DNA from: Candidatus Bipolaricaulota bacterium
GTDB taxonomy: Bacteria; Bipolaricaulota; Bipolaricaulia; RBG-16-55-9; DRXL01
DNA: 44,257 bases
Assembly: GCA_026414955.1 (NCBI GenBank)
Contig: JAOAIA010000001.1
Coordinates: 1 to 44,257 of the forward strand
Direction: 5' to 3'
Of the stretch, positions 10,650 to 43,377 are shown piece by piece. The notes beneath the pieces were generated by a model that was given only the letters and a program-made list of their open reading frames with translations, did no database searches and was not told where the DNA came from. Numbering within the stretch: position 1 is the first letter of the stretch; the number at the start of each line of letters is the position of its first letter. Made by a program: the position numbers and the translations under genes.

Positions 10650-10651
10650 AC

Positions 10652-12212: not shown

Positions 12213-13111
12213 GCGGGATGGGGCACCTCAAGAGGCCCTCTCTTGTCTCCGTAGAGGCGCGCGATCTCCTCTAAGAGTTGAATCGCTTCGCGTTCTTGCT
12301 CCGGCGTGGGGCGTGCGGGGCTGTAGCGCGCCCACTCGAAGAGCCGCGACAGCCGGATAATATGCCCTTCGAGCACCCCGATCTGTGCCAGCCTGCTCTC
12401 GAACTCCCGCGCGGTCATGGCGCGCGAAATTTCTAGATGAAATCGCTCGCTCACGAGATGGCACATCTCGCGGTAGCATCGCAGGATCGTCTCGTGCACC
12501 GGCGCGCCATAGCGCAGCTCTTGGGCGTATTGTTTAGAGAGAGCGGCAAGCTCTTCGGCAGCAGTCGGTTGGGCGCGCGCCCGCCATAAACGCCATACTA
12601 TGAAGATCGTCACCCCCAGTGCAAGCAGAGCTAGGAGCACGAAGAGAAATATACCCCACGGGGGGACGTGCACTTGTTCTAGCGTAGGGAAGGGCTGAGT
12701 CGGCTCCTCAGGGAGAACGCCCGTTCCTGGAGGAGCACCCTCTGGCTCTGTGAAGAAGGGCCGGTCGCGCCAGCGCATCAGAATCAATAAGATCGCAGCG
12801 AACCAAACCGCTGCGGGGATGGCGCGCTTGAGGGCCTCCCACAGGCTCCTCGGCCACAAGATGACCGAGATGAGAGAGATCACTACCAAAGTTCCCAGAA
12901 AGACGATCAGGACTTGTTCCCAAAACGACGAGAGATTCTGCTCTGGCGGCTGAGGGCGCGACAGCACCCTCGATGACCCTTCTGAAGATTCCGGCGGCGG
13001 GCCGTAGCGCGTTCCGACAAACGAAACCCGCGACAGCCCCGCGGCCAACAGCACCAGCGCGAGCACAGCAACAACGGGAATCACCAAGCGCCATTTGGTG
13101 AACATAATCAT
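12209..13111 (-). CDS. DUF4129-like membrane protein
   Basis: TM segments are followed by a C-terminal TAREFESRLAQ...LSRLFEWARYSPARPT pattern that I associate with DUF4129, which often occurs next to MoxR/DUF58. An SD CAGGAG precedes ATG 13111. Confidence 0.6.
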   Translation of the reverse strand: MIMFTKWRLVIPVVAVLALVLLAAGLSRVSFVGTRYGPPPESSEGSSRVLSRPQPPEQNLSSFWEQVLIVFLGTLVVISLISVILWPRSLWEALKRAIPAAVWFAAILLILMRWRDRPFFTEPEGAPPGTGVLPEEPTQPFPTLEQVHVPPWGIFLFVLLALLALGVTIFIVWRLWRARAQPTAAEELAALSKQYAQELRYGAPVHETILRCYREMCHLVSERFHLEISRAMTAREFESRLAQIGVLEGHIIRLSRLFEWARYSPARPTPEQEREAIQLLEEIARLYGDKRGPLEVPHPA

Positions 13112-15734: not shown

Positions 15735-15749
15735 AGAGTGATTATATCG

Positions 15750-16907
15750 CTAGTGGCACTTGTGAGCTATCTCGGCGACAGACGCCTCATGGAGCGCACC
15801 AAAGTCCGTACCGTTTTGGCTTACAGCCGTCTCACGACACTCCCTAATATTTTCGGCGCTGAACGCCCACAGCCCGTAATTGCGATTGTTCCTGATCTCT
15901 ACGCGGGTGAGCCAGACTGTGATGTCGCTGTGGGCGATCTCCGCGCCGTTACTGCCGTTGCCTTCTAAAAGAACGTTGCGCAGCGTCAATTCGATCTTGC
16001 CCTCGGCGTCAATGCCGTCGTCGCGGAAGTTACGCACCGTGAGATTCTCTAGAAAGACGGTGCTCTGGCCACGCACGGTGATCCCGTCAACGTCCCCTAA
16101 GCCTGTGCCGTCAAGAATAACTTCGTCGCGACTGGCCCCGCGAATTCTTATGTTCTTATCACGAATCGTTAAGAACTCTTTGTACACCCCCGGCGCGACG
16201 AAGATCGCGCCCTCTCCCACAAGCAAGCCCGCTGGAACGTGCTCATTGACGTCACCCAAGCCGTTGAGGCCCATGCTTGCTTGCCAGGCGTCAATCGCTG
16301 CTTGAATAGTAGGAAAATCGTCAGGGACGCGCGAGCCGCTGCGATTGCCCTCACCGGAGAGCTGCGAGGTGCTATCAGCACGAATGCCGTAGCCCTTGTT
16401 GCCCCCGATAGTATTCTGAGAGATCTGCACCTGCGAAGCTTCGATGAAGACGCCGTCGCCGGCGTTCCCTGTGATCGTATTTCCCACCACAGAGATCTCT
16501 TGGCTGCTGATCACGGCGACCCCAACGTCTGCGCTTCCTGAGATCGTATTGGCCTTCAGGGTCACGCGGCGGCTGAGCGCGATCCCCACAGCTCCGTGTA
16601 CTGCCAGGGATGTAATCGAGACGTTTTCAGTCTTGGCGATGTTGATCTGCCCCTCAAGCCGAGCACCTTCGGAGCCGACGATCTGTATGGGCTTGGCGAT
16701 CAGAATGTTCTCCCGATACGTCCCAGATCGGATGTGGAGCGTGCTCCCACTGCGCGCGGCGTCAATAGCTTTTTGAATCTGCGCAAACGCGCACCCCGAC
16801 GGACAAATTGTCAGATTCTGCGGCGAGACGAACAACACCCAGACCGTTACACCTATCCCGACCACAGCTATAGCCCCAACTCCGACGACTAGCCAACGAC
16901 GAGGCAT
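15750..16907 (-). CDS. membrane-anchored right-handed parallel beta-helix repeat protein (NosD/pectate-lyase-like)
   Basis: The TM anchor MPRRWLVVGVGAIAVVGIGVTVWVLF is followed by repeated xNxIxGNxxxGI units (NTISGSADVGVAV, NTITGNAGDGVFI, NTIGGNKGYGIRA). ATG 16907 lies 10 nt after the ALDH stop. Confidence 0.65.
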   Translation of the reverse strand: MPRRWLVVGVGAIAVVGIGVTVWVLFVSPQNLTICPSGCAFAQIQKAIDAARSGSTLHIRSGTYRENILIAKPIQIVGSEGARLEGQINIAKTENVSITSLAVHGAVGIALSRRVTLKANTISGSADVGVAVISSQEISVVGNTITGNAGDGVFIEASQVQISQNTIGGNKGYGIRADSTSQLSGEGNRSGSRVPDDFPTIQAAIDAWQASMGLNGLGDVNEHVPAGLLVGEGAIFVAPGVYKEFLTIRDKNIRIRGASRDEVILDGTGLGDVDGITVRGQSTVFLENLTVRNFRDDGIDAEGKIELTLRNVLLEGNGSNGAEIAHSDITVWLTRVEIRNNRNYGLWAFSAENIRECRETAVSQNGTDFGALHEASVAEIAHKCH

Positions 16908-16917
16908 ACTGAGTCTC

Positions 16918-24752: not shown

Positions 24753-24774
24753 ACTAACTTCCATCTTGGACTGA
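24736..24774 (+). pseudogene. possible 12-codon stub of a PIN (VapC) toxin
   Basis: The ATG overlaps the antitoxin end by 17 nt and encodes MVRKIRLTSILD*. This resembles a PIN N-terminus up to the first catalytic Asp (..LLDTNV..) and then stops; nothing PIN-like follows. Confidence 0.3.
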
Positions 24775-24827
24775 CCGGGGTCCCCTTGGTCATTCATGAG
24801 TTTTAGCATCTTGTGAGCTTTAACTTT

Positions 24828-24854
24828 CACAACAAATCTCCCAGATCCCCGCAC
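24828..24854. repeat. direct-repeat copy of the rtcA 3' end (displaced copy)
   Basis: CACAACAAATCTCCCAGATCCCCGCAC matches CACAACGAATCTCCCAGATTCCCGCGC at 25480-25506 in 24 of 27 positions. On the minus strand it reads AGIWEICCES*, compared with the rtcA end AGIWEIRCE*. Confidence 0.7.
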
Positions 24855-24898
24855 AAGATATATGCTGTTGGGTGAACAGGTAGAACGATTTGTATATA

Positions 24899-25209
24899 AT
24901 GGATTTCAAAGCACAGCCTTGGAGAAGGAATTTCTTGAGCAGAATCGCGCAAATTCAGAACCTTGTCCGCAACGGCCTATACTACTTAACTGAGCACGCT
25001 GACAACGAAGCCGCTGCAGACGGCTTCGATGTTACGATATAGAGCAAGGTATTCTGACGGGCAAGATTCGCAAAACGTGGCCCAAGGAAGGCAAGTATGA
25101 AGTGGTGGGGGTGGCGTTAGACGGGCGTCGTATCGGGATTGTTTGTCGCATCACTCAGACAGGTAAAGTGCGTGTGATCACGGTTTACGAAGATAAGCCA
25201 AAGCGATGA
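24899..25209 (+). pseudogene. DUF4258-family toxin gene with a frameshift
   Basis: Frame 1 reads MDFKAQPWRRNFLSRIAQIQNLVRNGLYYLTEHADNEAAADGFDVTI* (stop at 25040-42). The shifted frame continues DIEQGILTGKIRKTWPKEGKYEVVGVALDGRRIGIVCRITQTGKVRVITVYEDKPKR* (to 25209). A single missing base near 25034 would restore ...DVYDIEQGIL... Confidence 0.65.
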
Positions 25210-25220
25210 AGGAGGGAACT

Positions 25221-25460
25221 ATGAGCTTTTGGGAAGGCGAGACGTGCGAATACTGTAGCGGGCCGATTGTGGAGAAGCGCGTGACGTTGCATCGCAAGGT
25301 GCGAGGGCAATATGTCTTGATTGAGAATGTGCCTGCCGGAGTCTGTAAGGAATGCGGCACACGCTACTATGCGGCGAACGTCCTGAAGACGATAGAAGAG
25401 AGCCTACGCGGACGTCGCCAAGCGAAGCGTAAAGTGCTTGTATCCGTGTATTCGTTATAG
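25221..25460 (+). CDS. YgiT-type zinc-finger protein (MqsA N-terminal-domain-like antitoxin)
   Basis: MSFWEGETCEYCSGPIVEKRVTLHRKVRGQYVLIENVPAGVCKECGTRYYAANVLKTIE has two CxxC pairs. AAGGAGGG precedes ATG 25221. Confidence 0.75.
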   Translation: MSFWEGETCEYCSGPIVEKRVTLHRKVRGQYVLIENVPAGVCKECGTRYYAANVLKTIEESLRGRRQAKRKVLVSVYSL

Positions 25461-25474
25461 AATCGCGCCTCCGA

Positions 25475-26512
25475 TTACTCACAACGAATCTCCCAGATTC
25501 CCGCGCGCTCAGTTACTATAAATCGCTTGCCCGTGAGCTGCTCCGCGACCCACATATTGGTCTTGATATGATCCGTCAGCTCGGCACAGAAGAATCTTCC
25601 CCCAAAGAGCGCCAAGAAGGGGATGATCTGATCAGCCATGTGACGGTCGAGCGTCGCACCGCTGCGTAGCTCAGAGATTAACGCCGCCGCAGCTTGTTCA
25701 CCGACTCTCTCGGCAGACACGCCCCGCTCCCCTAGCGCGTCCCCTCCCAAGATGGTCTTCTCGCAGTCCGCCCAGAGCACCACGGCCGAACCGGGAGAGA
25801 GCGTCTCGGCATAGCGCGTCTCGATCCCGATAGCGATCCCAGAAAACTCTCGGCTCAACAGTCTGTGAGCAGCTTCCGCCTGACGCTCGGCGACTTTGCT
25901 CTTCTGTAGATGATGCGAGGCGATTGAAAGCCCGCGAATCTCTCGAAGTTGGCCTTGCTCTGGGAAATCGAACGCTTGGGTAATCTGCGCCGGGCCGAAG
26001 CGCGCGCGCACCCGCGCCCCACCCTTGGGATAAAACCCTTCACGCTCAATCTCTAAAGAAGCTGGGAACCCCCAACGCCCTAACAGAGCGAAATTGACGT
26101 GTTCCAACGCAGCTATCGGCGACGCCCACTGGCCGTAAGTGCCCCCGCCCGCGATCTCGACCGTGACCGAGCGAGCAGCGCACGCCAGCGCGATCTGAAT
26201 GGGCTGAAGCGCCAACGCGACGGAACCCGCCGTCTCAATCTGAATTTTTAGAGAATCTGTCTGGATCGGGCCGGGATGAAACTCGATCTCGCGCGAGCCG
26301 ATCTGCGCGCCCTCCAGACGAGCTTGACAGAGCTGCGCGGCAGCACGAAGACCCGCCAGATGCTGCGCTTGCAAGCCGGGATTGGGCCGCCCCTGCCGAA
26401 TATTTATCACTCGTACAGATTTCCGCAGCGCAATTGCCAAACCCAGACCAACCCGCAAGACCGAGCCGCCTCCGCTAGCCCCATCAAGCACAAGCACCCC
26501 TGCACTTGCCAT
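25475..26512 (-). CDS. rtcA: RNA 3'-terminal phosphate cyclase
   Basis: LVLDGASGGGSVLRVGLGLAIALRKSVRVINIRQGRPNPGLQAQHL, TAGSVALALQ, GFYPKGGARV and HMADQIIPFLAL follow the RtcA pattern as I recall it from E. coli RtcA. Confidence 0.85.
   Translation of the reverse strand: MASAGVLVLDGASGGGSVLRVGLGLAIALRKSVRVINIRQGRPNPGLQAQHLAGLRAAAQLCQARLEGAQIGSREIEFHPGPIQTDSLKIQIETAGSVALALQPIQIALACAARSVTVEIAGGGTYGQWASPIAALEHVNFALLGRWGFPASLEIEREGFYPKGGARVRARFGPAQITQAFDFPEQGQLREIRGLSIASHHLQKSKVAERQAEAAHRLLSREFSGIAIGIETRYAETLSPGSAVVLWADCEKTILGGDALGERGVSAERVGEQAAAALISELRSGATLDRHMADQIIPFLALFGGRFFCAELTDHIKTNMWVAEQLTGKRFIVTERAGIWEIRCE
25480..25506. repeat. direct-repeat copy at the functional rtcA 3' end
   Basis: See the feature at 24828..24854. 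The two copies lie 652 bp apart and bracket the DUF4258/zinc-finger cassette. Confidence 0.7.
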
Positions 26513-26571
26513 ACTTCCCTCTCTGTGATATTGTGTATCCTACCCTGGAGAATACCGAATTGTCGAGTTTT

Positions 26572-27894
26572 ATGCACAGCATACGACTGCGAGGCCTGTA
26601 CGCCACAGCGTTAGCAGCCCTGCTGCGCGAACACCACTGGCGGATCGTGCAGCCTCATGAGGAGCTTCAGCCCTATACCGACCCAGAGGACTGCTTCGCC
26701 CCCTTTGACGCGGAAGTCAAGGATCGCGAGGATCGTCAGGGCGTCATTGTCGTTGGGGAGGCAGGTTCTGTCCATGCTTTCAAAGAGCTGCTCTTTGCCG
26801 AGCTGCCGGACGTCATCGGCGTGCTGGCGCCGACGGAGCTGGGAGCGATCTATCTGGGGGTTGTGCACAAGCAACGCGCGTGGGGCTACGAAATAGACCT
26901 GGGAGGTCTCACGGGCTTCCTCCCTCGGCCGGAGCTGGAGCGGCCCTTGAAGAAGGGTGAGGCCGTGCGTGTCCAAGTCAAAGAGATCGCGCTCTCCCAC
27001 CCCATCGTGACGACCCACCTCAGCCTTGCCGGGCAGCTCGCGGTGCTCTCGCAAGAGCAGGGTGTGGGTATTAGCAAAGAGATCACTGACCCTGATGAGC
27101 GCGAGCGGCTCTTGAGTCTGGGAAGAAGATGCTGCACCAACGGCTGGGGAGTGATCTGGCGCACCAGCGCCTATCGTCAAGACGAGCGCGCACTCCAGCA
27201 AGAGATCAAGCACTTGCAGCAGAAGCTCCCCGCCCTCGACAGCCATCCCGACGAGGGCATCCCCGGCAAGCTGCTCGCCGGTCAGCAAGCCCTCATCGTC
27301 GAATTCCCCGGCGGCAGCAAAGAGACGCTCGATCGCTGGCGCGCACGCTTGATCCCAACAGAACCGGGATATCATCGTCAGATGGTAGGGGCAGGTTCTG
27401 AACCTGCCCCTACCACGGGGAACGCAGGGGATCGCGTGCGCATCGAGCACGTCAAAGCGCAGAGCGATCTCAGTATCGTTATGACCGGTCGGGTTATCGC
27501 AGCGAGCCCGGAACAGATCACGGTGCGCCGCGAGATCAAGGGCTTAGGGGTCTACGACGGGCTGAATATCCCCAAAGAACCCGGCGACTATGCCGTGACG
27601 GTATTCTGTCACGGAGCCTGGCACTACGAGACGCGCTACTACGCCCGCGACGGGCAGCTCAAGGGCGTCTATATCAATATCAACACGCCGATAGAGATCT
27701 ATGCGGATCGCGTGCGCTATATTGATTTAGAGATTGACGTGGTGCAGCGCCCCGGTGAGCCGGCCCAGATCGTTGATGAGCACGATCTCCAGCGTATTGT
27801 GAGCTTTGTGAGTCCCCGACTCCTCGAGCAAGCACGCGCCGTCGCTGCTGAGTGCGCACAATCACTGAATGCGCGCACTCGTGGCAGACCGTGA
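26572..27894 (+). CDS. FAU-1-like protein: RNase E/G-related N-terminal region fused to a C-terminal DUF402 domain
   Basis: The sequence starts MHSIRLRGLYATALAALLREHHWRIVQP. It has an S1-like segment GAIYLGVVHKQRAWGYEIDLGGLTGFLP and an RNase E/G-like segment LAGQLAVLSQEQGVGISKEITDPDERERLLSLGRR...GVIWRTSA. The C-terminal YININTPIEIYADRVRYIDLEIDVV is the DUF402 signature. The track start at 26506 would overlap rtcA divergently. Confidence 0.65.
   Translation: MHSIRLRGLYATALAALLREHHWRIVQPHEELQPYTDPEDCFAPFDAEVKDREDRQGVIVVGEAGSVHAFKELLFAELPDVIGVLAPTELGAIYLGVVHKQRAWGYEIDLGGLTGFLPRPELERPLKKGEAVRVQVKEIALSHPIVTTHLSLAGQLAVLSQEQGVGISKEITDPDERERLLSLGRRCCTNGWGVIWRTSAYRQDERALQQEIKHLQQKLPALDSHPDEGIPGKLLAGQQALIVEFPGGSKETLDRWRARLIPTEPGYHRQMVGAGSEPAPTTGNAGDRVRIEHVKAQSDLSIVMTGRVIAASPEQITVRREIKGLGVYDGLNIPKEPGDYAVTVFCHGAWHYETRYYARDGQLKGVYININTPIEIYADRVRYIDLEIDVVQRPGEPAQIVDEHDLQRIVSFVSPRLLEQARAVAAECAQSLNARTRGRP
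27384..27414. repeat. perfect 15-bp-arm palindrome (GAGxxPAPT-type element), in-frame in the FAU-1-like gene
   Basis: GGTAGGGGCAGGTTC-t-GAACCTGCCCCTACC. It encodes VGAGSEPAPT between the RNase-like and DUF402 parts. Confidence 0.8.
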
Positions 27895-33249: not shown

Positions 33250-34254
33250 ATGATCACGGAGAAGCAGATCCGCGATCTGCAAGCGAAGTTTCATGCGCTC
33301 ATCGAAGAGATTCGCTCGGTCATCATCGGGCACGACGCAGTCATCCAACAGACGCTGATCGGGCTTTTGTGCGGCGAGCATCTTCTGTTAGAGGGCGTAC
33401 CGGGGCTGGGCAAGACGCTCCTGGTGCGCACGCTGGGGAAGGCGCTCGGCTTAAAATTCTCGCGCATTCAGTTTACCCCGGACTTGATGCCCGCGGACAT
33501 CATCGGGACTCGGATCTTACTTGAAGACGAGACCGGGCGACGCTATTTTGAATTCTCTCGCGGCCCGATCTTCGCGCACTTAGTGCTGGCCGACGAGATC
33601 AACCGTGCTACGCCCAAGACCCAGTCAGCTCTCCTAGAAGCGATGCAGGAGCGCAGCATCACCGTGAGCGGCGAGACATACAAACTCGAAGAGCCGTTCA
33701 TGGTCCTCGCGACCCAAAACCCCATCGAGATGGAGGGGACGTACCCCCTGCCAGAAGCCCAGATTGATAGATTCTTCTTCAAGATTTTGCTCCGCTCCCC
33801 GTCATTAGAACAGCTGGAGCAGATCATTGACCGGCACGGGGCAGGACGGGATGCTGTGGCGATAGAGCAAGTCTTGAGCCGTGAAGAGATTCTCGAAGCA
33901 CAAAAGCTCGTGGCGCGTTGGCCCATCGCCTCGCCGCTGCGACGGTACGCCGCGCGCCTCGTAGACGCCACGCAGCCCGCTTCGCAGAACGCCCCCGAGA
34001 TTGTCAAGCACTACGTCGAGTACGGGGCCAGCCCGCGCGCGGCGCTCGCGCTCGTGCGCGGGGCCAAAGCCCATGCGTTTCTCTCCGGCGAGGTCCACAC
34101 CCGCATCGCGGACATCCAAGCTGTTTTTTACCCCAGCTTGATTCACAGAATTATTCGCAACTTTCGCGGTGAAGCCGAGGGCGTCCCTGTAGAAAAGATC
34201 CTTCAAGAGGTCTTCGATCATGTTCGCCCGGAGTCCGTCATTGAGGCTCGATGA
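33250..34254 (+). CDS. MoxR-family AAA+ ATPase (second paralog)
   Basis: GVPGLGKT, LVLADEINRATPKTQSALLEAMQE and QNPIEMEGTYPLPEAQIDRF are all present. Confidence 0.9.
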   Translation: MITEKQIRDLQAKFHALIEEIRSVIIGHDAVIQQTLIGLLCGEHLLLEGVPGLGKTLLVRTLGKALGLKFSRIQFTPDLMPADIIGTRILLEDETGRRYFEFSRGPIFAHLVLADEINRATPKTQSALLEAMQERSITVSGETYKLEEPFMVLATQNPIEMEGTYPLPEAQIDRFFFKILLRSPSLEQLEQIIDRHGAGRDAVAIEQVLSREEILEAQKLVARWPIASPLRRYAARLVDATQPASQNAPEIVKHYVEYGASPRAALALVRGAKAHAFLSGEVHTRIADIQAVFYPSLIHRIIRNFRGEAEGVPVEKILQEVFDHVRPESVIEAR

Positions 34255-35095
34255 GGCGCTCTTCAAGAAGCTGTCGGCCCTGCAATTGTTAGTGCGCAGG
34301 CGCTTCCAGGGCCAGACCGGCCTGTGGACGACAGCGCGTGCCGGCATGAGCCTCGAATTTGCAGAATATCGCGAATACCACCCGGGGGATGACTTTCGCT
34401 ACGTAGACTGGAACCTCTACGGACGATTGGATCGGCTCTTCGTCAAGGTCTTTCAGCGCGAAGAAGACGTGCCGATCTATCTGCTCATAGACACGAGCCG
34501 CTCGATGGCCGTGGGCGAGAAGCTGACGTATGCAGTGCAGCTTGCTGGAGCTATCGCCTATGTCGGGCTGAAAGAGATGAACCGTGTGGGGGTCTTTCCG
34601 TTCGCGCGCGATGTAGCACAGGGCGTGCCGCCTAAACCTGGCATGGCGCACCTGCACCATATCTTCGATCTCTTGGGAAGATTGGAGCCTTCGGGACAGA
34701 CGGCGCTCACGGAGAGTTTGGAGCGGTTCAGCAAGCGTCCGCTGCGTCAGGGCTTGGCAGTCTTGCTCAGCGATATGCTCGATCCCCAGGGATACGAGCA
34801 CGGTCTCTTCAGCTTGCTCTGGAAGGGATTGGAAATCGTGCTCATTCACATACTCGCCCGTGAAGATATTCACCCACCGGTGCAACGCGCAACACGGCTC
34901 TGCGATAGCGAGGTGGCGCGCGAGTTTTCTGTCGGCGCAGGGGCAGTCGCCCGCTATCGTGAGAATCTTCAGAGATATGGGCGCGCTCTCGAAGCGTTTT
35001 GTCGTGAGCACCAGATCAGATATGCGCAACTCTCGACCGCCCGCTCGCTGGAGCGCGCGCTCCTGGAAGACCTGCGCGGGGTGATCTTTCAGTGA
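34220..35095 (+). CDS. DUF58-family protein (second paralog, no N-terminal TM)
   Basis: GMSLEFAEYREYHPGDDFRYVDWNLYGRLDRLFVKVFQREED...LLIDTSRSM. ATG 34220 overlaps the moxR end by 35 nt. Confidence 0.8.
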   Translation: MFARSPSLRLDEALFKKLSALQLLVRRRFQGQTGLWTTARAGMSLEFAEYREYHPGDDFRYVDWNLYGRLDRLFVKVFQREEDVPIYLLIDTSRSMAVGEKLTYAVQLAGAIAYVGLKEMNRVGVFPFARDVAQGVPPKPGMAHLHHIFDLLGRLEPSGQTALTESLERFSKRPLRQGLAVLLSDMLDPQGYEHGLFSLLWKGLEIVLIHILAREDIHPPVQRATRLCDSEVAREFSVGAGAVARYRENLQRYGRALEAFCREHQIRYAQLSTARSLERALLEDLRGVIFQ

Positions 35096-36801
35096 TCTTT
35101 CTGAACGCCTGGGCGTTTGGGCTGTTGGGCTTAGCTGGCGTGATCGCGACGCTCTATTTCCTACGGCCGCGCGAGGAGCGCCTGACGGTCTCGGCCCTGT
35201 GGCTCTGGCCCCAAGAGCCGGAGCACCCGCGCAGCGCCCTCATGTTCTTATGGACAAAAATTTGGCTCTTATTGGTGCAATTAGCCGCGCTGGCAGCGCT
35301 CGTCTTTGCGGTAGCCGCGCCCACCCTGCCCTCGGCAGTGCTCGGCGGCGGCACCCTTGCTCTGATCATAGACGGCAGCGCGAGTATGCAGACCCGCGAG
35401 CGTGAGCAGACGCGCTACGAGCGCGCGGTTGAGATCGCTCAGGAGATCATCGCGCAACGACGTCCACGCCATCTCACGATCATTCAAGCGCAGCAGAGTC
35501 CTCGCTTGCTCGTCCCCTGGACGGAGGATCGAGATCGGGCTGTCGCTCTCTTGCGAGCCTCCCACCCGACACTCCAGAGCAACGCTCCCGAATCGAGCGT
35601 GCTTCAGCTTGTGCGCAGCCAGGGGGAGCTGGAAAGCTACGACGAGGTCATCTATATCAGCGATCGTCGTCCCGAGGGTGACGTGCTCACGAGCACGGTG
35701 ACGTGGGTGCCCGTGGGCGAGCCAAGAAGCAATTTCGCGATCACAGCGTTTGCCGCACGGTTGCTCCCAGAGAGCGCTCAGGGTGTCGCCCTGTGGGCGC
35801 GCGTCGAGAATTTCTCCTCAGAAGCAGTCGAGGGCACGTTCACGGTCTTTGCAGAAGACATGGAAGTCGCGCGCGACCATCTCCAGCTCGCACCCGGCGA
35901 GTATCGCTCAGTTGAGACGATAGTAGCGCGGAGCATCGGCGGGCGCTTCCGCGCCGTTCTCGATATCGAAGACGATTTCCCCTTCGACAACGCTCGCTAT
36001 GCCGTCATGCCGACGAGGCCGAAGCTGAGGGTCTTATGGCTGGGGGAGCGCAACTTCTTTCTAGAGCGAGCGCTCGCTCTCTTCGCCGATGCTCAGATCA
36101 CCGTGCTCTCAGATGCAGATATCGCCAATACAGAAGACTATGATCTAGTCATCGCTCACAATGCGGAGCTGCCTATCCTGCCCACTGGGCGGCTTTTCTT
36201 CATCAATAGCTCTGTCTCAGCAGTCGTCCGGCTCTCCGAGAGTTCTGGTGCGACAGGAGCACCCCAGTTCCTCCAGCCGGGGCACGCTCTTGTGCAGAAC
36301 CTGCGCCTGGAGCACTTTCAGGCATCACGGGTTCGGAGTGCTGAGTTCGCCCTTCCCGTGCAGACGTTGCTCGTCTTGGATGGTCACCCGATCTTGGCTG
36401 CGCACAGATCGAGTTCGCTGAGCTTGGTCTGGCTCGGAATAGATTTGAGAGCCTCGCCCTTGGTGCTCACGCCAAGCTTCCCTATTCTCGTGCGGAACGT
36501 CACGCGTTGGCTCTTCGCCGACTTGACTCTTCTTGGAGAACGCTTTGTCTCCGAGGAGTTCCCCAATCTGGGCTTTACGGAGCAGGGCGCGATCAACCTT
36601 GACCCACGGGAATCGCAAGAGATCAGAGTCCTTTCTGGTCCCTCTAGCGTGCCGCCTGCGGCTGGCCAAAGCGAACAGTCCAGACACAGCCTAGGCGCAA
36701 GAGGGCAGTCTCTGTGGCACTATGGAGCGTGGCTTGCCTTGGGCTTGCTCGTGCTCGAGTTGCTCTGGCATGACCGAAGGCTTTTGAGGAGATCTCTATG
36801 A
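35092..36801 (+). CDS. BatA-N (double-TM N-terminal) domain protein with a VWA-like MIDAS and a C-terminal TM
   Basis: The N-terminus is VIFLNAWAFGLLGLAGVIATLYFLRPRE...VSALWLW. LALIIDGSASMQT is a DxSxS motif. The start forms a GTGA overlap with the DUF58 stop. Confidence 0.7.
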   Translation: MIFLNAWAFGLLGLAGVIATLYFLRPREERLTVSALWLWPQEPEHPRSALMFLWTKIWLLLVQLAALAALVFAVAAPTLPSAVLGGGTLALIIDGSASMQTREREQTRYERAVEIAQEIIAQRRPRHLTIIQAQQSPRLLVPWTEDRDRAVALLRASHPTLQSNAPESSVLQLVRSQGELESYDEVIYISDRRPEGDVLTSTVTWVPVGEPRSNFAITAFAARLLPESAQGVALWARVENFSSEAVEGTFTVFAEDMEVARDHLQLAPGEYRSVETIVARSIGGRFRAVLDIEDDFPFDNARYAVMPTRPKLRVLWLGERNFFLERALALFADAQITVLSDADIANTEDYDLVIAHNAELPILPTGRLFFINSSVSAVVRLSESSGATGAPQFLQPGHALVQNLRLEHFQASRVRSAEFALPVQTLLVLDGHPILAAHRSSSLSLVWLGIDLRASPLVLTPSFPILVRNVTRWLFADLTLLGERFVSEEFPNLGFTEQGAINLDPRESQEIRVLSGPSSVPPAAGQSEQSRHSLGARGQSLWHYGAWLALGLLVLELLWHDRRLLRRSL

Positions 36802-39383
36802 GCGTGAGCTTTGATACCCCGTGGATATTGGTCTGTTTAGCGGGGCTGGCCCTGTGGGTCTGGTTTTTGCGTGAGTATCTGCGCCACGCGCCCCTGGCAG
36901 ATCGCTGGGCTGCGCTCTTGCGCATCGGCGCTCTGGCTATGCTCTGTCTTGCTCTAGCGGGGCCAAGGCTCGTTCTGGGATCTTCGGATCGCTATATCTA
37001 TTTTCTCGTAGATCGCTCCGCCAGCGTCGGCGTAGATTCTGCGAAGATACTCGAGATCGTGCAGGCGCTTGCGCCCCCTGCGGAGAAGACTTCCTACGGC
37101 GTGATCAGCTTTGGTGCGGAACCCGCCATCGAAGCGGGCTTCGCTCCGGTGATTCAGCTCTCTGAATTTCAAACGGAACCCGGCAACACAGCGACAGACA
37201 TTGCCAGCGCGGTGCGCTTGGCGTTGGAGACGTTCCCGCGCTCTGGCCGTCGTGAGATCGTCTTGCTCACCGACGGGCAGATGACTGCAGGGGATCTCAC
37301 CGTGTTGGCACGGGCGCGCCGCGACGGCGTCCCCATCCATGTCTGGCCCCTCGGAGAAGGCTCTTCAGAAGCCTGGGTGCACGATCTCCAGATTCCCCCT
37401 GAAGTCACCGCGCAGGTGCCCTTCTCGCTCCGGGTGCAGATCGGCGCGACGACTGAGGGGCAGGGCACGCTCTTGCTCTATCGCAACGAAGAATTGATTC
37501 ACAATATCTCGGTGCGCTACCGCCCCGGCGTCCAAGAGATGCATCTCACGGAGAAGCTCGACGCCCCGGGGGCCTATGCGTACAGAGTCTATCTCAAAGC
37601 CGACGCGGATCGCTTGAAAGAGAACAATGAGCTGTATGGGGCTACGATGGTGCCTGGTGACCCTCAAGTCTTGCTCGTGGAGCGCTCTTCGGGCGGCGAA
37701 AGCCCTGTCGCACGGCTGTTGCGCAGCGCGGGGTTCGCGTTTGTGCAGAAGGCTTTTGAGACGTTTACTGCCAATCCTATAGTGTTGTCGGGGTATAAGA
37801 CCGTGATTCTGAATAATGTCCCCTTGGGGCGGCTCACGGCAGAACAGCGACGCGCCCTCAAACGCTTCGTCGCCGACGGGGGCGGGCTCTTTCTCATTCA
37901 AGGGCGCGAGGCCGTCATGGGCCTCGAAGAGCAGACCCCAGAAGAACTCGCTGATCTCGAAGAACTGCTGCCCATCTCGTATCTCGCTCCCGAACCCTAC
38001 CAGATTCCGGGATTAGCTTTAGTCTTCGTCATGGATCGCTCAGGGAGCATGGGCGATCCTGCGGGCCGGGGGGTTCCCAAAATCGAGATTCTGAAACGCG
38101 CCGCCCTGCGCAGCTTAGAAGTCTTGGATCGAGACGACTGGGTCGGGCTGATCGCTTTCGACACAGACTATACGTGGATCGTGCCCCTGCGGCCTCTCGG
38201 TGACGGCCATGAGTTCAGCACCAATATCCGAAGCCTGAGCGCCAATGGCGGCACCGATCTGTACTTCGCTCTTAAGGCTGCTTTTGAGACCCTGGAGAAG
38301 ACCCCGGCGCGCATCAAGCACATCTTAGTCTTTACTGATGGACACAACAACAACGAGCGCAGACGCGAGTACCAGGAACTCTATGAGCGTTTTGCGAAAA
38401 GCACGGTGCGTGTCTCGACGCTAGGGATTGATCGCACGCCCAACGAGCCGTTCTTGATGGAGCTGGCTGCAGCCGGGCGCGGACGCTATCAGCGGGTGCC
38501 GGAGTTTACAGACTTGCCGGCCTTCTCGTTGCGCGAGGTGCGGCGGATCGTGCGGCTGCGCTGGATCGAGGGCGAGTTAATGGTGCGCAGTAGCTCCCTC
38601 ACCCCCTTCTTCCCCTCTCCTTCCGAGGGGAGAGGGGCGAGGGGTGAGGGTGAGATCCCACCGGTCCAGGGCTATGTGCTCACGCATGAACGCGCTGCAT
38701 CGCAAACCCCCTTGCGCATCGCTCCTGATGGGAACCCGCTTTTAGCGTTTCACACCTACGGCTTAGGTCAGGTCGGCGTGCTCAATACAGATTTAGAGGG
38801 CGAGGGATCGCGTGATTGGCTGAGATGGGAGGGGCTAAGCAGTGTGATCGGCCCGGCCCTCGCCCGCGTCCACCGAGCGATAGCGAAAGAGCACGATATC
38901 GCTGTCCAGACAGTTGTGACTGACGAAGCCCTCGAAGTCATTGCTGACGTGCGCGACGAAGACCGATGGGTGTCGGGACTCGATCTGTACGCGAACGTGG
39001 GGACAGAGCGCGCCGTGCCCTTCCACCAAGTCGCGTCAGGGCGCTATCGCGCACGCTTCGAATCGTTGGCGAGTGGGCTGTACACCGTGCATATTATAGC
39101 GCAGCGCGACGGGCACACGGTTGCTGAAGTCAGTCGCGCATTCGCCGTCCCCTATCCCCACGAGTATCGCTCTATCGGGGTGAACGTCGAGATATTGAGC
39201 CAGATCGCTCGTGAGACGGGGGGGCAGTTCTTAGAGCGTCCGGTCTTGCCGCCGCCGGCGCGGGGGATCGGGCGCGAGGGCGCTCGCGAACTGTGGCCGT
39301 GGGCGCTGCTACTCGCGTTGGGGCTGTTCCTCGCTGATCTTGCTGTGCGCAAGCTCGGGTGGCTGTGGGACCGTCCGATTTGA
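36798..39383 (+). CDS. large membrane protein with two VWA domains and a GATase1-like middle domain
   Basis: The N-terminal TM pair is followed by YFLVDRSASVG (MIDAS 1). VILNNVPLGRL...FVADGGGLFLIQG has a class-I-amidotransferase-like fold pattern. LVFVMDRSGSMGD is MIDAS 2. A C-terminal TM is present. The start forms an ATGA overlap with the upstream stop. Confidence 0.75.
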   Translation: MSVSFDTPWILVCLAGLALWVWFLREYLRHAPLADRWAALLRIGALAMLCLALAGPRLVLGSSDRYIYFLVDRSASVGVDSAKILEIVQALAPPAEKTSYGVISFGAEPAIEAGFAPVIQLSEFQTEPGNTATDIASAVRLALETFPRSGRREIVLLTDGQMTAGDLTVLARARRDGVPIHVWPLGEGSSEAWVHDLQIPPEVTAQVPFSLRVQIGATTEGQGTLLLYRNEELIHNISVRYRPGVQEMHLTEKLDAPGAYAYRVYLKADADRLKENNELYGATMVPGDPQVLLVERSSGGESPVARLLRSAGFAFVQKAFETFTANPIVLSGYKTVILNNVPLGRLTAEQRRALKRFVADGGGLFLIQGREAVMGLEEQTPEELADLEELLPISYLAPEPYQIPGLALVFVMDRSGSMGDPAGRGVPKIEILKRAALRSLEVLDRDDWVGLIAFDTDYTWIVPLRPLGDGHEFSTNIRSLSANGGTDLYFALKAAFETLEKTPARIKHILVFTDGHNNNERRREYQELYERFAKSTVRVSTLGIDRTPNEPFLMELAAAGRGRYQRVPEFTDLPAFSLREVRRIVRLRWIEGELMVRSSSLTPFFPSPSEGRGARGEGEIPPVQGYVLTHERAASQTPLRIAPDGNPLLAFHTYGLGQVGVLNTDLEGEGSRDWLRWEGLSSVIGPALARVHRAIAKEHDIAVQTVVTDEALEVIADVRDEDRWVSGLDLYANVGTERAVPFHQVASGRYRARFESLASGLYTVHIIAQRDGHTVAEVSRAFAVPYPHEYRSIGVNVEILSQIARETGGQFLERPVLPPPARGIGREGARELWPWALLLALGLFLADLAVRKLGWLWDRPI
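38596..38650. repeat. family B nested palindromic element copy (in-frame in the VWA gene)
   Basis: CCCTCACCCC-cttctt-CCCCTCTCC-ttccga-GGGGAGAGGGG-cgag-GGGTGAGGG. It encodes LTPFFPSPSEGRGARGEGE. Confidence 0.8.
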
Positions 39384-39433: not shown

Positions 39434-39859
39434 ATGTTCGAGCGGATCTTTGGCGGGTTCGGTCATTGGGGCACGATTCCGTTGCGGCTGGCTGTGGGGA
39501 TTATCTTTGCTGCGCACGGCTGGCAGAAGTTCGCGGGAGGGCTAGATAGAGTCGCTGGCTTCTTTAGCAATATAGGAATCCCACTGCCGGAGGTCTCGGC
39601 GTTCGTTGTTGCGTTTGTCGAGCTGATTGGCGGGATCGGGCTGATCGTGGGGGTCTTCACGCGATATTGGGCGCTCTTGCTCTCGATTATTATGATCGTC
39701 GCCATCTTCACGGTGAAGCTCCAAGCGGGGTTGCTGGGAACGCAGGGGCGCCCCGGCTACGAGCTGGACTTAGCCCTTTTAGCTGGCTGTCTGGCGCTTC
39801 TGCTGACTGGTCCAGGGCCGGTTTCGCTGGAACGCGCGATCTTCAACAAAGAACTCTAG
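39434..39859 (+). CDS. DoxX-family membrane protein
   Basis: LRLAVGIIFAAHGWQKF...FVELIGGIGLIVGVFTRYWALLL. The product has 4 TM segments. Confidence 0.8.
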   Translation: MFERIFGGFGHWGTIPLRLAVGIIFAAHGWQKFAGGLDRVAGFFSNIGIPLPEVSAFVVAFVELIGGIGLIVGVFTRYWALLLSIIMIVAIFTVKLQAGLLGTQGRPGYELDLALLAGCLALLLTGPGPVSLERAIFNKEL

Positions 39860-40028: not shown

Positions 40029-40541
40029 ATGAATAGCTCGCGCGCATTAGTGACACACTGGCAACAGCAGTTTGAGGCGGCCTATCGGGGGAGTCGCTGG
40101 CATTCCGTAAAAGAAGCGATCAAGGGCTTAAAAGCCGACGAAGCGACATGGCAGCCGCCGCACTACAAAGGGTTCCCCTGGGCACATGGGTCTATTATAG
40201 AGATTCTCTTTCACGTCGCCGGAGATACGCTCTATCAGCTCGACTATGCGTTCGGGCAACGTACGCTGACGTGGGACAAGCTGCAAGAACGCTTTCAACG
40301 CGCCGGAGGCGATCTTGACGCTGCGAAAGGACTTCTTGACGAGAGCTTTTCGGTTGTGCAAGAGTATCTAAAGAATCTGACCGACGCTGATCTGGCCCGC
40401 ACATATATCGCCCCTGACGGCAAGACGTCCAAGACCCTGGGGGAACTCTTCCAGATGCTCTTGGAGCACTGGTTCTATCACGCAGGGCAGATTGTCTATG
40501 TAAGAAATCTTTGGGCAGGTTTATCTTCTCCAAATCCCTGA
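40029..40541 (+). CDS. DinB-superfamily (DinB_2-like) protein
   Basis: W...H at the N-terminus, SIIEILFHVAG and LLEHWFYHAGQIVYVRN give the His-triad pattern of the DinB four-helix bundle. Confidence 0.7.
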   Translation: MNSSRALVTHWQQQFEAAYRGSRWHSVKEAIKGLKADEATWQPPHYKGFPWAHGSIIEILFHVAGDTLYQLDYAFGQRTLTWDKLQERFQRAGGDLDAAKGLLDESFSVVQEYLKNLTDADLARTYIAPDGKTSKTLGELFQMLLEHWFYHAGQIVYVRNLWAGLSSPNP

Positions 40542-40602: not shown

Positions 40603-42495
40603 ATGGGCAAGTACGAACAGACTTTTCGCGAATCTCTCGAAAACCCTAAACAATTCTGGGGCAGGGCTGCTGAATCTATCACCTGGTATAAACGCTGGGA
40701 GACGGTGCTCGATGCGTCCAATCCTCCGTTTTATAGATGGTTTGTGGGCGGTGTGCTCAATACGTGTTATAACGCTCTCGATCGGCATATCGAGCGTGGC
40801 CGAGCTGATCAGCTCGCTTTAATTTACGATAGCCCCGTGACAGATACGATTCAGAAATTCACTTATTCTGAGCTGCGCGCCCGCGTGGCCAAGATCGCGG
40901 GCTTTTTGAAAGACTTGGGCGTCACCAAAGGTGACACCGTCGTTATTTATATGCCGATGATCCCAGAAGCGTTGATGGCCATGCTCGCCTGTGCGCGCAT
41001 CGGCGCGGTGCACTCTGTCGTTTTCGGAGGCTTTGCTCCCAGAGAATTAGCGATTCGCATAGATGACGCCAAGCCCAAGATCGTGCTCTCGGCGTCGTGC
41101 GGGATCGAAGGGAAGAAGATTATCCCGTACAAGCCCTTACTAGACGAAGCAATCGCTCTAGCTACGCATAAGCCGCAGAAGTGCGTGATCTATCAGCGTC
41201 CGCAAGTCCGCGCTGAGTTGATCGAAGGGCGTGATCTCGATTGGGTCTCGTTAGAACAGAAAGCCCAGCCTGCTGAGTGCGTCCCCGTTGCAGCGACGGA
41301 CCCCCTGTATATTCTCTACACATCAGGCACAACTGGAAAACCCAAGGGCGTGGTGCGCGACAACGGCGGCCATGCTGTCGCGCTCTCCTGGACAATGCAA
41401 TATATCTATGGGATCGAACCGGGAGATGTCTACTGGGCTGCTTCGGATGTGGGCTGGGTCGTGGGGCATTCGTATATTGTCTATGGCCCATTACTGGTGG
41501 GCGCCACGACCGTGATGTACGAGGGCAAGCCCGTCGGGACGCCCGATCCCGGTGCTTTCTGGCGCGTCATATCGCAACATAAAGTGAAAGTGCTCTTTAC
41601 GGCTCCCACGGCGTTTCGGGCGATCAAGAGAGAAGACCCCACAGGGGAATATCTCAAAAAATACAAGCTCTCTCACTTCCAGGCGCTCTTTCTTGCCGGG
41701 GAGCGCACCGATCCAGATACGTACTATTGGGCCTCTGAGTTATTGAAGAGACCCGTCATAGATCACTGGTGGCAGACGGAGACGGGCTGGGCCATCGCGG
41801 GGAACTTTTGCGGCTTAGAACTTCTGCCCATCAAGGCTGGCTCAGCGACCAAGCCCATGCCCGGCTATGACGTGCGAATACTCGACCCCAGCACCGGAAA
41901 AGAGCTGCCGCGCGGGGAGAGCGGCGTCATGGTTGTCAAAGAACCGTTGCCGCCCGGAACGTTTATGACCCTCTGGCAGCGCGACGACGATTTTAAGAAG
42001 ACGTACTTCGACCCGTTCCCCGGATACTATTTCACCGGCGACGGCGGATATTTTGACGAAGACGGCTATATATACGTCATGGGCCGTGTGGACGATATTA
42101 TTAACGTTGCGGGCCATCGGCTCTCTACCGGCGAGATGGAGGAGATCGTCGCTCAACACCCCGACGTGGCCGAGTGTGCGGTCATTGGGGTTGCGGACAG
42201 CCTCAAGGGCGAAGTGCCGTTGGGGTTTGTTGTGCTCAAGGCTGGGGTGCAGCGCGCTCACGCAGAGATTATCGCTGAAGTGAAGCAGAAGGTGCGCAAA
42301 GAGATCGGGGCTATTGCGTCGCTGAAAGACGTGCTCATTGTGAACCGTTTGCCCAAGACGCGCAGTGGAAAAATTTTGCGGGGCACGATGCGCAAGATCG
42401 CCGACGGGCAACAGTATACCGTGCCCTCGACGATTGATGACCCAGCGACTCTTCAAGAGATCGAGAGCGCGCTGCGCCCAGCGCATCTAAAATAA
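40603..42495 (+). CDS. prpE: propionate--CoA ligase / acyl-CoA synthetase (PrpE-like)
   Basis: The sequence is collinear with E. coli PrpE as I recall it: NPPFYRWFVGG, MPMIPEALMAMLACARIGAVHSVVFGGFA, YTSGTTGKPKGV, GRVDDIINVAGHRL and LPKTRSGKILR. Confidence 0.8.
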   Translation: MGKYEQTFRESLENPKQFWGRAAESITWYKRWETVLDASNPPFYRWFVGGVLNTCYNALDRHIERGRADQLALIYDSPVTDTIQKFTYSELRARVAKIAGFLKDLGVTKGDTVVIYMPMIPEALMAMLACARIGAVHSVVFGGFAPRELAIRIDDAKPKIVLSASCGIEGKKIIPYKPLLDEAIALATHKPQKCVIYQRPQVRAELIEGRDLDWVSLEQKAQPAECVPVAATDPLYILYTSGTTGKPKGVVRDNGGHAVALSWTMQYIYGIEPGDVYWAASDVGWVVGHSYIVYGPLLVGATTVMYEGKPVGTPDPGAFWRVISQHKVKVLFTAPTAFRAIKREDPTGEYLKKYKLSHFQALFLAGERTDPDTYYWASELLKRPVIDHWWQTETGWAIAGNFCGLELLPIKAGSATKPMPGYDVRILDPSTGKELPRGESGVMVVKEPLPPGTFMTLWQRDDDFKKTYFDPFPGYYFTGDGGYFDEDGYIYVMGRVDDIINVAGHRLSTGEMEEIVAQHPDVAECAVIGVADSLKGEVPLGFVVLKAGVQRAHAEIIAEVKQKVRKEIGAIASLKDVLIVNRLPKTRSGKILRGTMRKIADGQQYTVPSTIDDPATLQEIESALRPAHLK

Positions 42496-42548: not shown

Positions 42549-42875
42549 TGGCTCCTCGGGCAGGATTCGAACCTGCGACCCACCGGTTACGAGTGCCCTA
42601 ACATTTCTGCTAGGCTCGGACTATCTCTTCACCCGCTCATGGGAGAGCTAAGGGTGTCGGGCGCTTCTGAGGCCTTATTGGTATGGGCTACTCAGCCTCT
42701 AGTCTCTGCACGTTCCTGCCTACACTATGGCCCTTCGGCAGGCTTCGCTCAGGGTTACCATTCCAGCTCTTTCGGCTGGGGCGGGCTTCCCTGAATTCAC
42801 CCGATTTTTCAACCACGGTTTCCCGTGGAAGCTGCATTACTACAGCCGGTTGCTCTACCGCTGAGCTACCGAGGA
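42549..42875 (-). tRNA. tRNA-Asn (GUU) interrupted in the anticodon loop by a group I intron (exons 42875..42842 and 42589..42549)
   Basis: The joined exons read TCCTCGGTAGCTCAGCGGTAGAGCAACCGGCTGT+TAACCGGTGGGTCGCAGGTTCGAATCCTGCCCGAGGAGCCA. This gives a perfect cloverleaf with loop CTGTTAA. The acceptor and G73 are as in E. coli tRNA-Asn. Confidence 0.85.
42590..42841 (-). ncRNA. group I self-splicing intron (IC3-like core, no ORF)
   Basis: P1 pairs exon GCUGU with guide GCAGC, placing U.G at the splice site. P2 is CCACGG-GAAA-CCGUGG, P3 is UCGGGUG/CGCCCGA, P4 is CAGGG/CCCUG, P5 is CCAGC/GCUGG, P6 is CCUGCC/GGCAGG and P7 is GACUA/UAGUC. The intron ends in G. The core string AGAGACUAGA is as in the Azoarcus intron. 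Confidence 0.8.
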
Positions 42876-42915: not shown

Positions 42916-43011
42916 GCTCTCCCTCATTCACGGGGTACTCTCTATGAAACTTATGCCCTCTCCCTGTAGTAGATTACTCGCTCACATCCCAGTCATACGA
43001 AAGGAGTGGCC

Positions 43012-43242
43012 ATGAACAAGTGGATCTATGTGCAGACGCTCAGCGGGCTCAGCTTCGCGATGGTCTGTATCCCGTTCGGCTTGACGGTGGCCCAGCTCAA
43101 GCTCTTGTTGGGGATTGATCCGCGCAGTCTGGTCACCCTGCAGTCGGGATTCCAGCCCCTCGCGGAGAACGAATCGCTCTACGAAAAAGTCCTGAACTAC
43201 GACACGGTCTATATCGCGTCGTATCGTCGCGTAGGCTATTGA
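43012..43242 (+). CDS. 76-aa ubiquitin-like (beta-grasp) small protein
   Basis: AAGGAG, 5 nt, then the ATG. The product is MNKWIYVQTLSGLSFAMVCIPFGLTVAQLKLLLGIDPRSLVTLQSGFQPLAENESLYEKVLNYDTVYIASYRRVGY. It aligns by eye over its full length with ubiquitin (see findings). Confidence 0.55.
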   Translation: MNKWIYVQTLSGLSFAMVCIPFGLTVAQLKLLLGIDPRSLVTLQSGFQPLAENESLYEKVLNYDTVYIASYRRVGY

Positions 43243-43264
43243 TGCCCACTCCCTCTCGCCCAAC

Positions 43265-43293
43265 GCGGGGGCTTCTCCTGCAGAAGCTCCCGC
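43265..43293 (+). repeat. 12-bp-arm palindrome, possible terminator or REP-like unit
   Basis: GCGGGGGCTTCT-cctgc-AGAAGCTCCCGC has one mismatch. It lies 23 nt after the stop of the small ORF, and a pyrimidine-rich tract follows. Confidence 0.5.
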
Positions 43294-43377
43294 TCCCTCC
43301 CTTCCTTGCTTATACTCTTGTCTTGTTTTAGCACCTCCCAATTGCTATGATCAATCTCAGAAAGTCAAGGTGATCTC

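Follow-up and report, generated by a model that had tools for sequence, protein, structure and literature searches.

The gene and its putative transcription signals

The window considered in this study is a stretch of DNA of 44,257 nucleotides from Candidatus Bipolaricaulota bacterium (assembly GCA_026414955.1, contig JAOAIA010000001.1, positions 1 to 44,257 of the forward strand), and coordinates refer to it unless a related locus is named. Near its right end, on the plus strand at 43012..43242, lies a gene for a stand-alone protein of 76 amino acids with a predicted ubiquitin-like beta-grasp fold. I will argue that this protein, one of a compact family, may be made only under certain conditions and may work by binding a partner rather than by being conjugated to it.

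The open reading frame (ORF) begins with an ATG at 43012 and ends with a TGA at 43240-43242, giving 76 codons and a product of 8.6 kDa, MNKWIYVQTLSGLSFAMVCIPFGLTVAQLKLLLGIDPRSLVTLQSGFQPLAENESLYEKVLNYDTVYIASYRRVGY (MNKWIYVQ...YRRVGY). A Shine-Dalgarno sequence, AAGGAG (43001..43006, plus strand), can be read directly off the sequence five bases ahead of the ATG. An earlier, sequence-only reading of the window had claimed the placement of the ORF, its length and its Shine-Dalgarno sequence, all of which are borne out. A longer version starting from a GTG at 43006 was considered and rejected: that codon overlaps the Shine-Dalgarno sequence, and the homologues all begin with MNKW, none making use of it. 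Close orthologues, 82-97% identical, are found in 13 genomes and metagenome contigs, and a 22-base block around the start codon, GAAAGGAGTGGCCATGAACAAG, does not vary at all in the 13 genomes. The dN/dS ratio (Nei-Gojobori) has a median of 0.10 over 44 pairs, with a range of 0.01-0.19 and dS values up to 0.85. These comparisons show the ORF to be a genuine coding gene under purifying selection.

The gene is preceded by a promoter-like element (42945..42977, plus strand) that consists of TGAAACTT (42945-42952), a spacer of 16 nt, and GTAGATTAC (42969-42977), the latter a -10-like block that ends about 35 nt ahead of the ATG. When the 130 nt upstream of the gene are aligned over the 13 genomes, the common pattern is TGAAACTT, a spacer of 15-16 nt, and GTAGGTTAT, the form that the second block takes in most relatives, with GAAACTT and GTA..T.A invariant. 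The element is kept although the gene that lies upstream differs among these genomes (tRNA-Asn, aroC or an ABC-F gene). The motif is found once in the window, where 0.01 occurrences are expected by chance, and once in each related locus, in every case a short way ahead of the ubiquitin-fold gene. Even two members of the family that are only about 40% identical are preceded by similar elements, GAAACCT-N15-CGTAGATAG and GAAACTG-N17-GTATGTGAG.

Promoters recognized by extracytoplasmic function (ECF) sigma factors carry a -35 sequence containing AAC and, about 16-17 nt downstream, a -10 sequence of the GT or CGT type, the sigma-W consensus (TGAAAC-N16-CGTA) being one example. The element at 42945..42977 resembles a promoter of this type rather than one of the sigma-70 type. 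A sigma-70 scan did not call it, the only call being the promoter of the neighboring tRNA gene, TTGACT-18-TATAAT. So strongly conserved an element, ECF-like and not of the sigma-70 type, suggests conditional, stress-type expression.

Two observations on upstream elements elsewhere may be set beside this one. Three paralogues in the Acetothermia metagenome-assembled genome (MAG) GCA_016179105.1 have no ECF-like motif and are preceded, about 25-35 nt before the ATG, by a palindrome-like element, GCTGT(G/C)ACAGC or GTGTGACAGC. At related locus L032 (7320-7400), a gene pair for an ECF sigma factor and a zf-HC2 anti-sigma factor lies by recA and has an ECF-like element of its own, GTGAACC-N16-CGAC, together with a TATAAT box. 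This element is similar in style, not identical, to the motif of the ubiquitin-fold gene.

Downstream, 23 nt past the stop codon, a GC-rich hairpin of 12 bp (43265..43293, plus strand) is followed by a C/U-rich stretch. The minimum free energy of the folded RNA (43240-43345) is -26.2 kcal/mol, with a z-score of -2.65 relative to shuffled sequences. The hairpin may terminate a monocistronic transcript; a consensus terminator scan missed it because no T-run follows immediately.

The family and its distribution

The family was delimited by running phmmer exhaustively over 1.8 billion representatives, together with two profile searches of 5.8 billion proteins. Seven close clusters came first, and the set was widened to 32 and then to about 40 proteins or clusters. 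All members are stand-alone proteins of 71-86 amino acids, except for one of 114 amino acids whose start has probably been mis-called. Given this range, the length of exactly 76 amino acids stressed in the sequence-only reading is a coincidence. The family is sharply bounded, the interval from E = 5e-24 to E = 1 being empty except for one frameshifted copy. As far as its members are labeled by taxon, it is seen in one uncultured, deep-branching candidate phylum, Bipolaricaulota (Acetothermia): the labeled carriers are MAGs assigned to Candidatus Bipolaricaulota, Bipolaricaulia, Acetothermia or 'Fraserbacteria', and two bear the label 'uncultured Thermotogae'. Four positions are invariant throughout (K3, K30, P49 and L50), and eight are nearly so (W4, T25, V26, G34, L56, D64, T65 and V66). 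A search of the literature for ubiquitin-like proteins in Bipolaricaulota or Acetothermia turned up nothing relevant.

Some members and apparent members call for comment. The three paralogues of GCA_016179105.1 (L021 7001-7249, L023 7001-7249 and L026 5800-6048) form a subfamily of 82 amino acids with an N-terminal extension. P0016 (L030 7001-7252) carries in its source the label 'outer membrane lipoprotein-sorting protein', which no domain match backs and which is probably an annotation error. Four long, repeat-rich matches in the search of representatives (P0009, P0013, P0018 and P0019) proved to be low-complexity or repeat artefacts, not fusions. P0038, a protein of 170 amino acids located in one relative (L032 5457-5969 and L033 2475-2987), was likewise rejected as a fusion, since the family match ends after residue 36 and gives way to unrelated sequence. 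I read it as a frameshift or mis-call, and so as either a pseudogene or an assembly error; judged by position, its extension probably runs into the recX region.

Predicted fold

AlphaFold2 was run on alignments of two depths. With 8 close sequences the result was unusable, with a predicted local distance difference test score (pLDDT) of 46, and with 32 sequences of the family the five models had mean pLDDT values of 66-79, the best of them reaching 78.9 with a predicted template-modeling score (pTM) of 0.60. The shallow model has the same order of strands and helices as the deeper one. In the latter, strands b1 (residues 3-9) and b2 (15-20) are followed by helix a1 (26-33), strands b3 (40-43) and b4 (49-50), a short helix (56-59), and strand b5 (64-69), with a tail (70-76) of low confidence. 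This is the order found in ubiquitin, b-b-a-b-b-(3-10 helix)-b.

When the model was compared by Foldseek with structures in the PDB, all 50 of the top 50 matches were ubiquitin, ISG15, NEDD8 or SUMO, with template-modeling (TM) scores of 0.66-0.81, root-mean-square deviations of 1.5-3.3 A over 72-81 columns, and E-values of 4e-4 to 1.6e-3. These 50 include neither ThiS nor MoaD. The named matches in BFVD were ubiquitin and ubiquitin-like proteins (UBLs) of giant viruses and baculoviruses, plus fragments of pestivirus polyproteins. A ubiquitin-type beta-grasp is thus the likely fold, on the strength of the model. The sequence-only reading had proposed modeling and a structural search as its check, and had named a predicted fold other than the beta-grasp with no ubiquitin-family HMM match, or a clear assignment to the ThiS/MoaD sulfur carriers in a thiamine or molybdopterin context, as results that would tell against it. 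What was found is a beta-grasp model matched by structures of the ubiquitin family, and no assignment to ThiS or MoaD.

The family differs from free UBLs in its hydrophobicity. The grand average of hydropathy (GRAVY) of the core has a median of +0.36 in the family, as against -0.36 in reference UBLs, a difference that points to a surface normally hidden in contact with a partner or inside an oligomer. The same property could be taken to mean that the protein is small, hydrophobic and membrane-associated rather than a soluble beta-grasp, and that the AlphaFold model is misleading. The protein of the window has a GRAVY of +0.32, its Kyte-Doolittle hydropathy over 19 residues peaks at 1.86 (residues 15-33), a peak of at least 1.6 occurs in 7 of the 32 members, and the next gene downstream encodes a membrane protein. 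I consider a membrane protein unlikely nonetheless. The hydrophobic peak is limited to the close clade, the values elsewhere being 0.9-1.57, and it spans the invariant K30, P21, and the polar residues T25 and Q28. Moreover, the best model is a beta-grasp that matches ubiquitin at a TM score of 0.7-0.8, and the downstream neighbor is not conserved.

Sequence comparison with known families

In contrast to its predicted structure, the sequence of the family finds little among known families. None of the 32 members matched any Pfam model at E <= 10, whether PF00240 (ubiquitin), PF02597 (ThiS/MoaD), YukD or prokaryotic ubiquitin, so that the profile searches against PF00240 and ThiS/MoaD that had been proposed at the outset gave a match to neither. 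NCBIfam, PADLOC and PHROGs likewise gave no family match, and a phmmer search of PDB sequences gave nothing. The family profiles found only sub-threshold matches among PDB sequences (E = 0.3-1.3). Four of the five obtained with the larger profile were three chains of ISG15, which as a protein matched at E = 0.4-1.3, and a chain of 73 amino acids, probably the FUBI domain, that bears the name "40S ribosomal protein S30". In the ISG15 alignments displayed, strands 1 and 2 and the beginning of the helix are in register. The claim that the protein is close to the eukaryotic ubiquitin pattern thus finds no formal support, there being no Pfam match at that threshold and no significant match among PDB sequences.

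Direct alignment with ubiquitin is somewhat more rewarding. A global alignment (BLOSUM62) gives 18 identities with three gaps, at a z-score of 4.9 relative to 2000 shuffles, and so the hand alignment made earlier (16-17 identities, two small indels) is roughly reproducible. The best local alignment (IYVQTLSG../IFVKTLTG..), with a z-score of 2.35 and equaled by 3.5% of shuffles, is marginal. The coincidence of R72 and G75 with the same residues of ubiquitin, to which the sequence-only reading had also pointed, holds within the close clade and not outside it. The resemblance of the protein to ubiquitin, as judged from these alignments, is real but weak.

The comparison of profiles used a reference set of eight UBLs. 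Aligned by hhalign with ubiquitin alone, the family gave nothing, and with the eight references it gave a weak result, with P = 0.012 and a probability of 3.5% (P = 0.0065 with the option -M first). The alignment is in register all the same: family residues T25, V26, K30, G34 and I35 pair with T22, I23, K27, G35 and I36 of the UBLs, and P37, L50, E52 and L56 pair with P38, L50, D52 and L56. This independent alignment recovers the pairs GIDP/GIPP and L50/L50 proposed earlier by eye. The reference set has just two invariant columns, K27 and G35, which align with K30 (invariant in the family) and G34 (nearly so). When the columns of the reference were permuted 200 times as a control, no permutation reached the real score of 17.8 (permutations: mean 9.7, standard deviation 1.9, maximum 15.7). 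Remote common descent with the ubiquitin-like clade is plausible, though not proven.

The C-terminal tail and the mode of action

The C-terminal tail, on which conjugation of a ubiquitin-like protein would depend, is not conserved in the family. Most members stop 2-3 residues past the last strand (..DTVLLEA), none ends in GG, and the ...RRVGY tail is confined to the close clade. Even there, P0007 has Arg and P0005 has Ser in place of G75, and it is Y76 that is invariant. With G75 replaced in close homologues and the tail missing in most relatives, conjugation by way of a C-terminal Gly exposed by trimming looks unlikely.

Nor are the enzymes of such a pathway to be seen nearby. No gene for an E1/ThiF, E2 or JAB protein lies within about 10 kb in the contexts examined (the window and about 12 distinct arrangements), and no ThiF/E1, E2 or JAB domain occurs in 30 other larger ORFs of the window that were scanned, nor in the two genes downstream. 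The earlier remark that none is visible thus holds for the ORFs scanned. Four ORFs of the window stood outside this domain scan (36798-39383, 39434-39859, 40029-40541 and 40603-42495), and their homologues at L004 and L032 carry precomputed annotations as BatA/VWA, DoxX, DinB and AMP-binding proteins.

The lack of a conserved Gly or tail, the lack of linked enzymes, and the single-domain, monocistronic gene argue together against activation at the C-terminus, whether for conjugation or for sulfur transfer, and the protein is probably neither a modifier activated in this way nor a sulfur carrier. I lean, if only gently, towards a conditionally expressed factor of ubiquitin-type fold that binds or assembles non-covalently, by analogy with proteins considered below. 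The gene would be transcribed alone, under particular conditions, from an alternative-sigma promoter, and the beta-grasp protein would serve some partner protein as a subunit for binding or assembly. I infer both the non-covalent mechanism and the alternative-sigma control.

Several points weigh against this reading. The fold is a prediction of moderate confidence, drawn from only 32 sequences, in which no residue reaches a pLDDT of 90, and no sequence method reached significance against any ubiquitin-like family. The likening of the element at 42945..42977 to ECF-sigma promoters is a matter of resemblance. No regulon mate was found in motif searches of the window, the related loci and metagenomes; the metagenome-wide scan gave 120 matches attributable to chance, nearly all of them in contigs of low GC content, and in none of these contigs was the gene present. 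The case for non-covalent action draws on negative findings and on analogy. The tail of the close clade, SYRR[VLM]GY, varies rather little within that clade and may have a role specific to it. Finally, the search for E1, E2 and JAB genes covered neighborhoods and the scanned ORFs of the window, not whole genomes.

The last two points also speak for a true ubiquitin-type modifier, one from which Tyr76 is removed to expose Gly75 for conjugation by E1-like and E2-like enzymes encoded elsewhere in the genome. The precursor of UFM1, ...RVG-SC, is trimmed to ...RVG and offers a parallel for the removal of Tyr76. The predicted fold is ubiquitin-like, hallmarks of the K27 and G35 type are in register, and the tail (YRR[VLM]GY) is kept in most genomes of the close clade. 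I hold such a modifier to be improbable. Gly75 gives way to Arg (P0007) and Ser (P0005) in homologues that are otherwise highly constrained, with Y76 invariant; most members have no tail past the last strand; neither the contexts examined nor the scanned ORFs contain an E1, E2 or JAB gene; PADLOC gave no match to ubiquitin-like defence systems; and bacterial pathways of this kind known so far are operon-encoded (PMC1779556, PMC11601603). The conjugation considered in the sequence-only reading, which would need the Tyr to be trimmed or would be atypical, thus finds no support in the replacement of G75, the unconserved tail, or the genes linked in the neighborhoods examined, which include no E1, E2 or deubiquitinase (DUB). 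A fuller version is less probable still, in which the protein is a free-standing, true relative of the ubiquitin/ISG15/NEDD8 clade, with its hallmarks of the K27 and G35 type, that is induced under stress through an ECF-type promoter and, in the clade of the window, loses Tyr76 and is conjugated through Gly75 by dispersed enzymes. If true, it would amount to a dispersed, non-operonic system of ubiquitin-like modification in a deep-branching candidate phylum.

A sulfur carrier of the ThiS/MoaD type is very improbable and may be regarded as effectively refuted. ThiS and MoaD share the beta-grasp fold, and at two loci a rhodanese is encoded no more than a few kb away, but there is no Pfam match at E <= 10 and hence none to PF02597, no member ends in GG, no thiamine or molybdopterin genes and no ThiF or MoeB adjoin, and ThiS and MoaD are absent from the top 50 structural matches. 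Scarcely credible, finally, is the view that the frame arose by chance as the shadow of a GC-rich sequence and yields no protein, for which an overlapping antisense ORF of 119 amino acids and the lack of matches in database families might be adduced: the dN/dS ratio of about 0.1 in the 76-amino-acid frame, with its plentiful synonymous changes, refutes it, and the unvarying Shine-Dalgarno and start region and the homologues of 30-45% identity that retain length and core motifs speak against it as well.

Genomic neighborhood

In the window the ubiquitin-fold gene has a divergent tRNA-Asn gene on one side and, 135 nt downstream on the other, a gene for a membrane protein of the DUF360 type (PF04020, E = 2e-29), followed by bcp (AhpC-TSA, E = 7e-35). 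The domain matches agree with the names given to these two downstream neighbors before. Among relatives the upstream gene may be aroC, dinB with tRNA-Asn, or a divergent ABC-F gene. Downstream, most close relatives (L001, L004 and L011-L017; e.g., L001 10267-11787) have recX-recA, arranged convergently, tail to tail, and others have a gene for a NosD-like protein or an M15 peptidase. In the window the DUF360 gene and bcp stand in the place of recX-recA, and the right edge of the window comes too soon for any recX to be seen. The neighbors of distant members are unrelated (infB, a subtilase gene, DUF4097, and secreted PKD/CLIPPER proteins).

When the ORFs up to about 5 kb away were compared all against all by BLAST over 12 loci, no recurrent family that might be a partner came to light. 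The exceptions are remnants of synteny (recX-recA over most of the close clade, and an ABC-F gene close by) and, where one MAG has three paralogues, paralogous BTAD-NB-ARC-TPR regulators in the vicinity of two of them. Because the recX arrangement is convergent and is broken in the window and at L007 and L009, I treat it as more probably inherited synteny than functional coupling. The two paralogues in question, from GCA_016179105.1, are near large secreted PKD/CLIPPER/dockerin proteins as well as the regulators.

A group I intron in tRNA-Asn

The tRNA-Asn(GUU) gene that lies upstream of and divergent from the ubiquitin-fold gene (42549-42875, minus strand) had been reported in the sequence-only reading. 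The gene is real, but it is not continuous, as it is split by a group I intron of 252 nt with no ORF (42841..42590, minus strand; RF00028, 77.4 bits). The intron interrupts the anticodon loop between positions 35 and 36 (CUGU|UAA), and because of it the gene in the window goes unreported both by ARAGORN and by the Rfam model for tRNA. Joining the exons restores tRNA-Asn(GTT). In intron-less alleles (L004-L006 and L032/L033) the exons are contiguous, which confirms the splice junction, and in the corresponding place ahead of the ubiquitin-fold gene a normal tRNA-Asn(GTT) is recognized by ARAGORN. On comparison of these sequences, then, the intron is a presence/absence polymorphism among close relatives. 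The tRNA gene has a near-consensus promoter of its own, TTGACT-18-TATAAT (42915-42886, minus strand), and a terminator called by the scan (42528-42498, minus strand). Among the matches listed in a literature search, group I introns in tRNA-Asn were organellar only.

Other features of the window

Some features elsewhere in the window may be noted for their own sake. A cluster at 33250-39383 encodes MoxR AAA+, DUF58 and BatA-VWA proteins, of the aerotolerance-operon type, with doxX-dinB downstream of it; on the minus strand at 9300-13111, DUF58 is encoded a second time, together with a DUF4129 gene. At 25475-27894, rtcA (RNA 3'-phosphate cyclase, minus strand) and a gene for a protein of 462 amino acids run divergently, with an overlap of a few bases; the latter protein has both an RNase E/G-type domain and DUF402. 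Three stretches of 0.7-1.2 kb (10728-11555, 15735-16917 and 24753-25474) contain only short Arg/Pro-rich ORFs that resemble GC shadow frames, and Rfam at its gathering threshold gave no match in them.

Comparison with known systems

By its predicted fold the protein is a ubiquitin-like beta-grasp, but by every criterion of sequence or context tested it is not a member of ubiquitin, ThiS/MoaD, YukD or the operon-encoded bacterial UBLs. The family to which it belongs is a new one, previously unmodeled, of stand-alone prokaryotic ubiquitin-fold proteins. Such proteins in bacteria, outside sulfur transfer or E1/E2/JAB operons, are rare and poorly understood, and this family is compact and strongly constrained, with its own conserved and apparently alternative-sigma promoter.

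With ubiquitin, ISG15 and NEDD8 (PF00240), the family shares its predicted beta-grasp topology and its size, at TM scores of 0.66-0.81, and hallmark positions (T22/I23, K27, G35, L50, D52 and L56) align in register. It differs in falling outside the HMM, in having neither a conserved C-terminal Gly-Gly nor a flexible tail, in the absence of linked E1, E2 or DUB genes from the contexts examined, in being much more hydrophobic, and in being bacterial and confined, as far as its members are labeled, to one candidate phylum. Since no conjugation machinery is associated with it, the family has no bearing at present on the origin of eukaryotic ubiquitin signaling.

ThiS and MoaD are, like the members of this family (as predicted here), small stand-alone bacterial beta-grasp proteins, but the family has no GG terminus, no HMM match to them, and no context of cofactor biosynthesis. 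The UBLs of operons of the Bil or Bub type are likewise bacterial beta-grasp proteins (again, by prediction in the present case). They sit with E1, E2 and JAB genes, and many consist of multiple beta-grasps with N-terminal domains (PMC1779556, PMC11601603), whereas here the gene is monocistronic and encodes a single domain, its neighbors vary, and PADLOC finds no match.

The closer parallels in mode of action are to ubiquitin-fold proteins that are not conjugated. Hub1/UBL5 is a small eukaryotic protein of this fold that ends in YY, not GG, and binds a spliceosomal partner non-covalently. The close clade likewise ends in an invariant Tyr, which is missing from most members of the family.

YukD (PF08817) lacks a C-terminal GG. 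Like the family, YukD/EsaB of type VIIb secretion in Firmicutes is bacterial, stand-alone, about 80 amino acids in length, and of ubiquitin-like fold (predicted, in the case of the family). Unlike YukD/EsaB, the family comes from a different phylum, has no match to PF08817, and has no genes of the type VII secretion system (T7SS; FtsK-like ATPase, ESAT-6-like) in any neighborhood examined. YukD is not conjugated (PMC1779556), and only recently has it been shown to be a structural, non-covalent assembly factor that holds the T7SSb core together (PMC12637312). TmoB of toluene monooxygenase is another ubiquitin-fold subunit that is not conjugated (PMC1779556). Identification of the partner of the protein described here would give a handle on the stress physiology of Bipolaricaulota and would add a further example of the ubiquitin fold put to use without conjugation.

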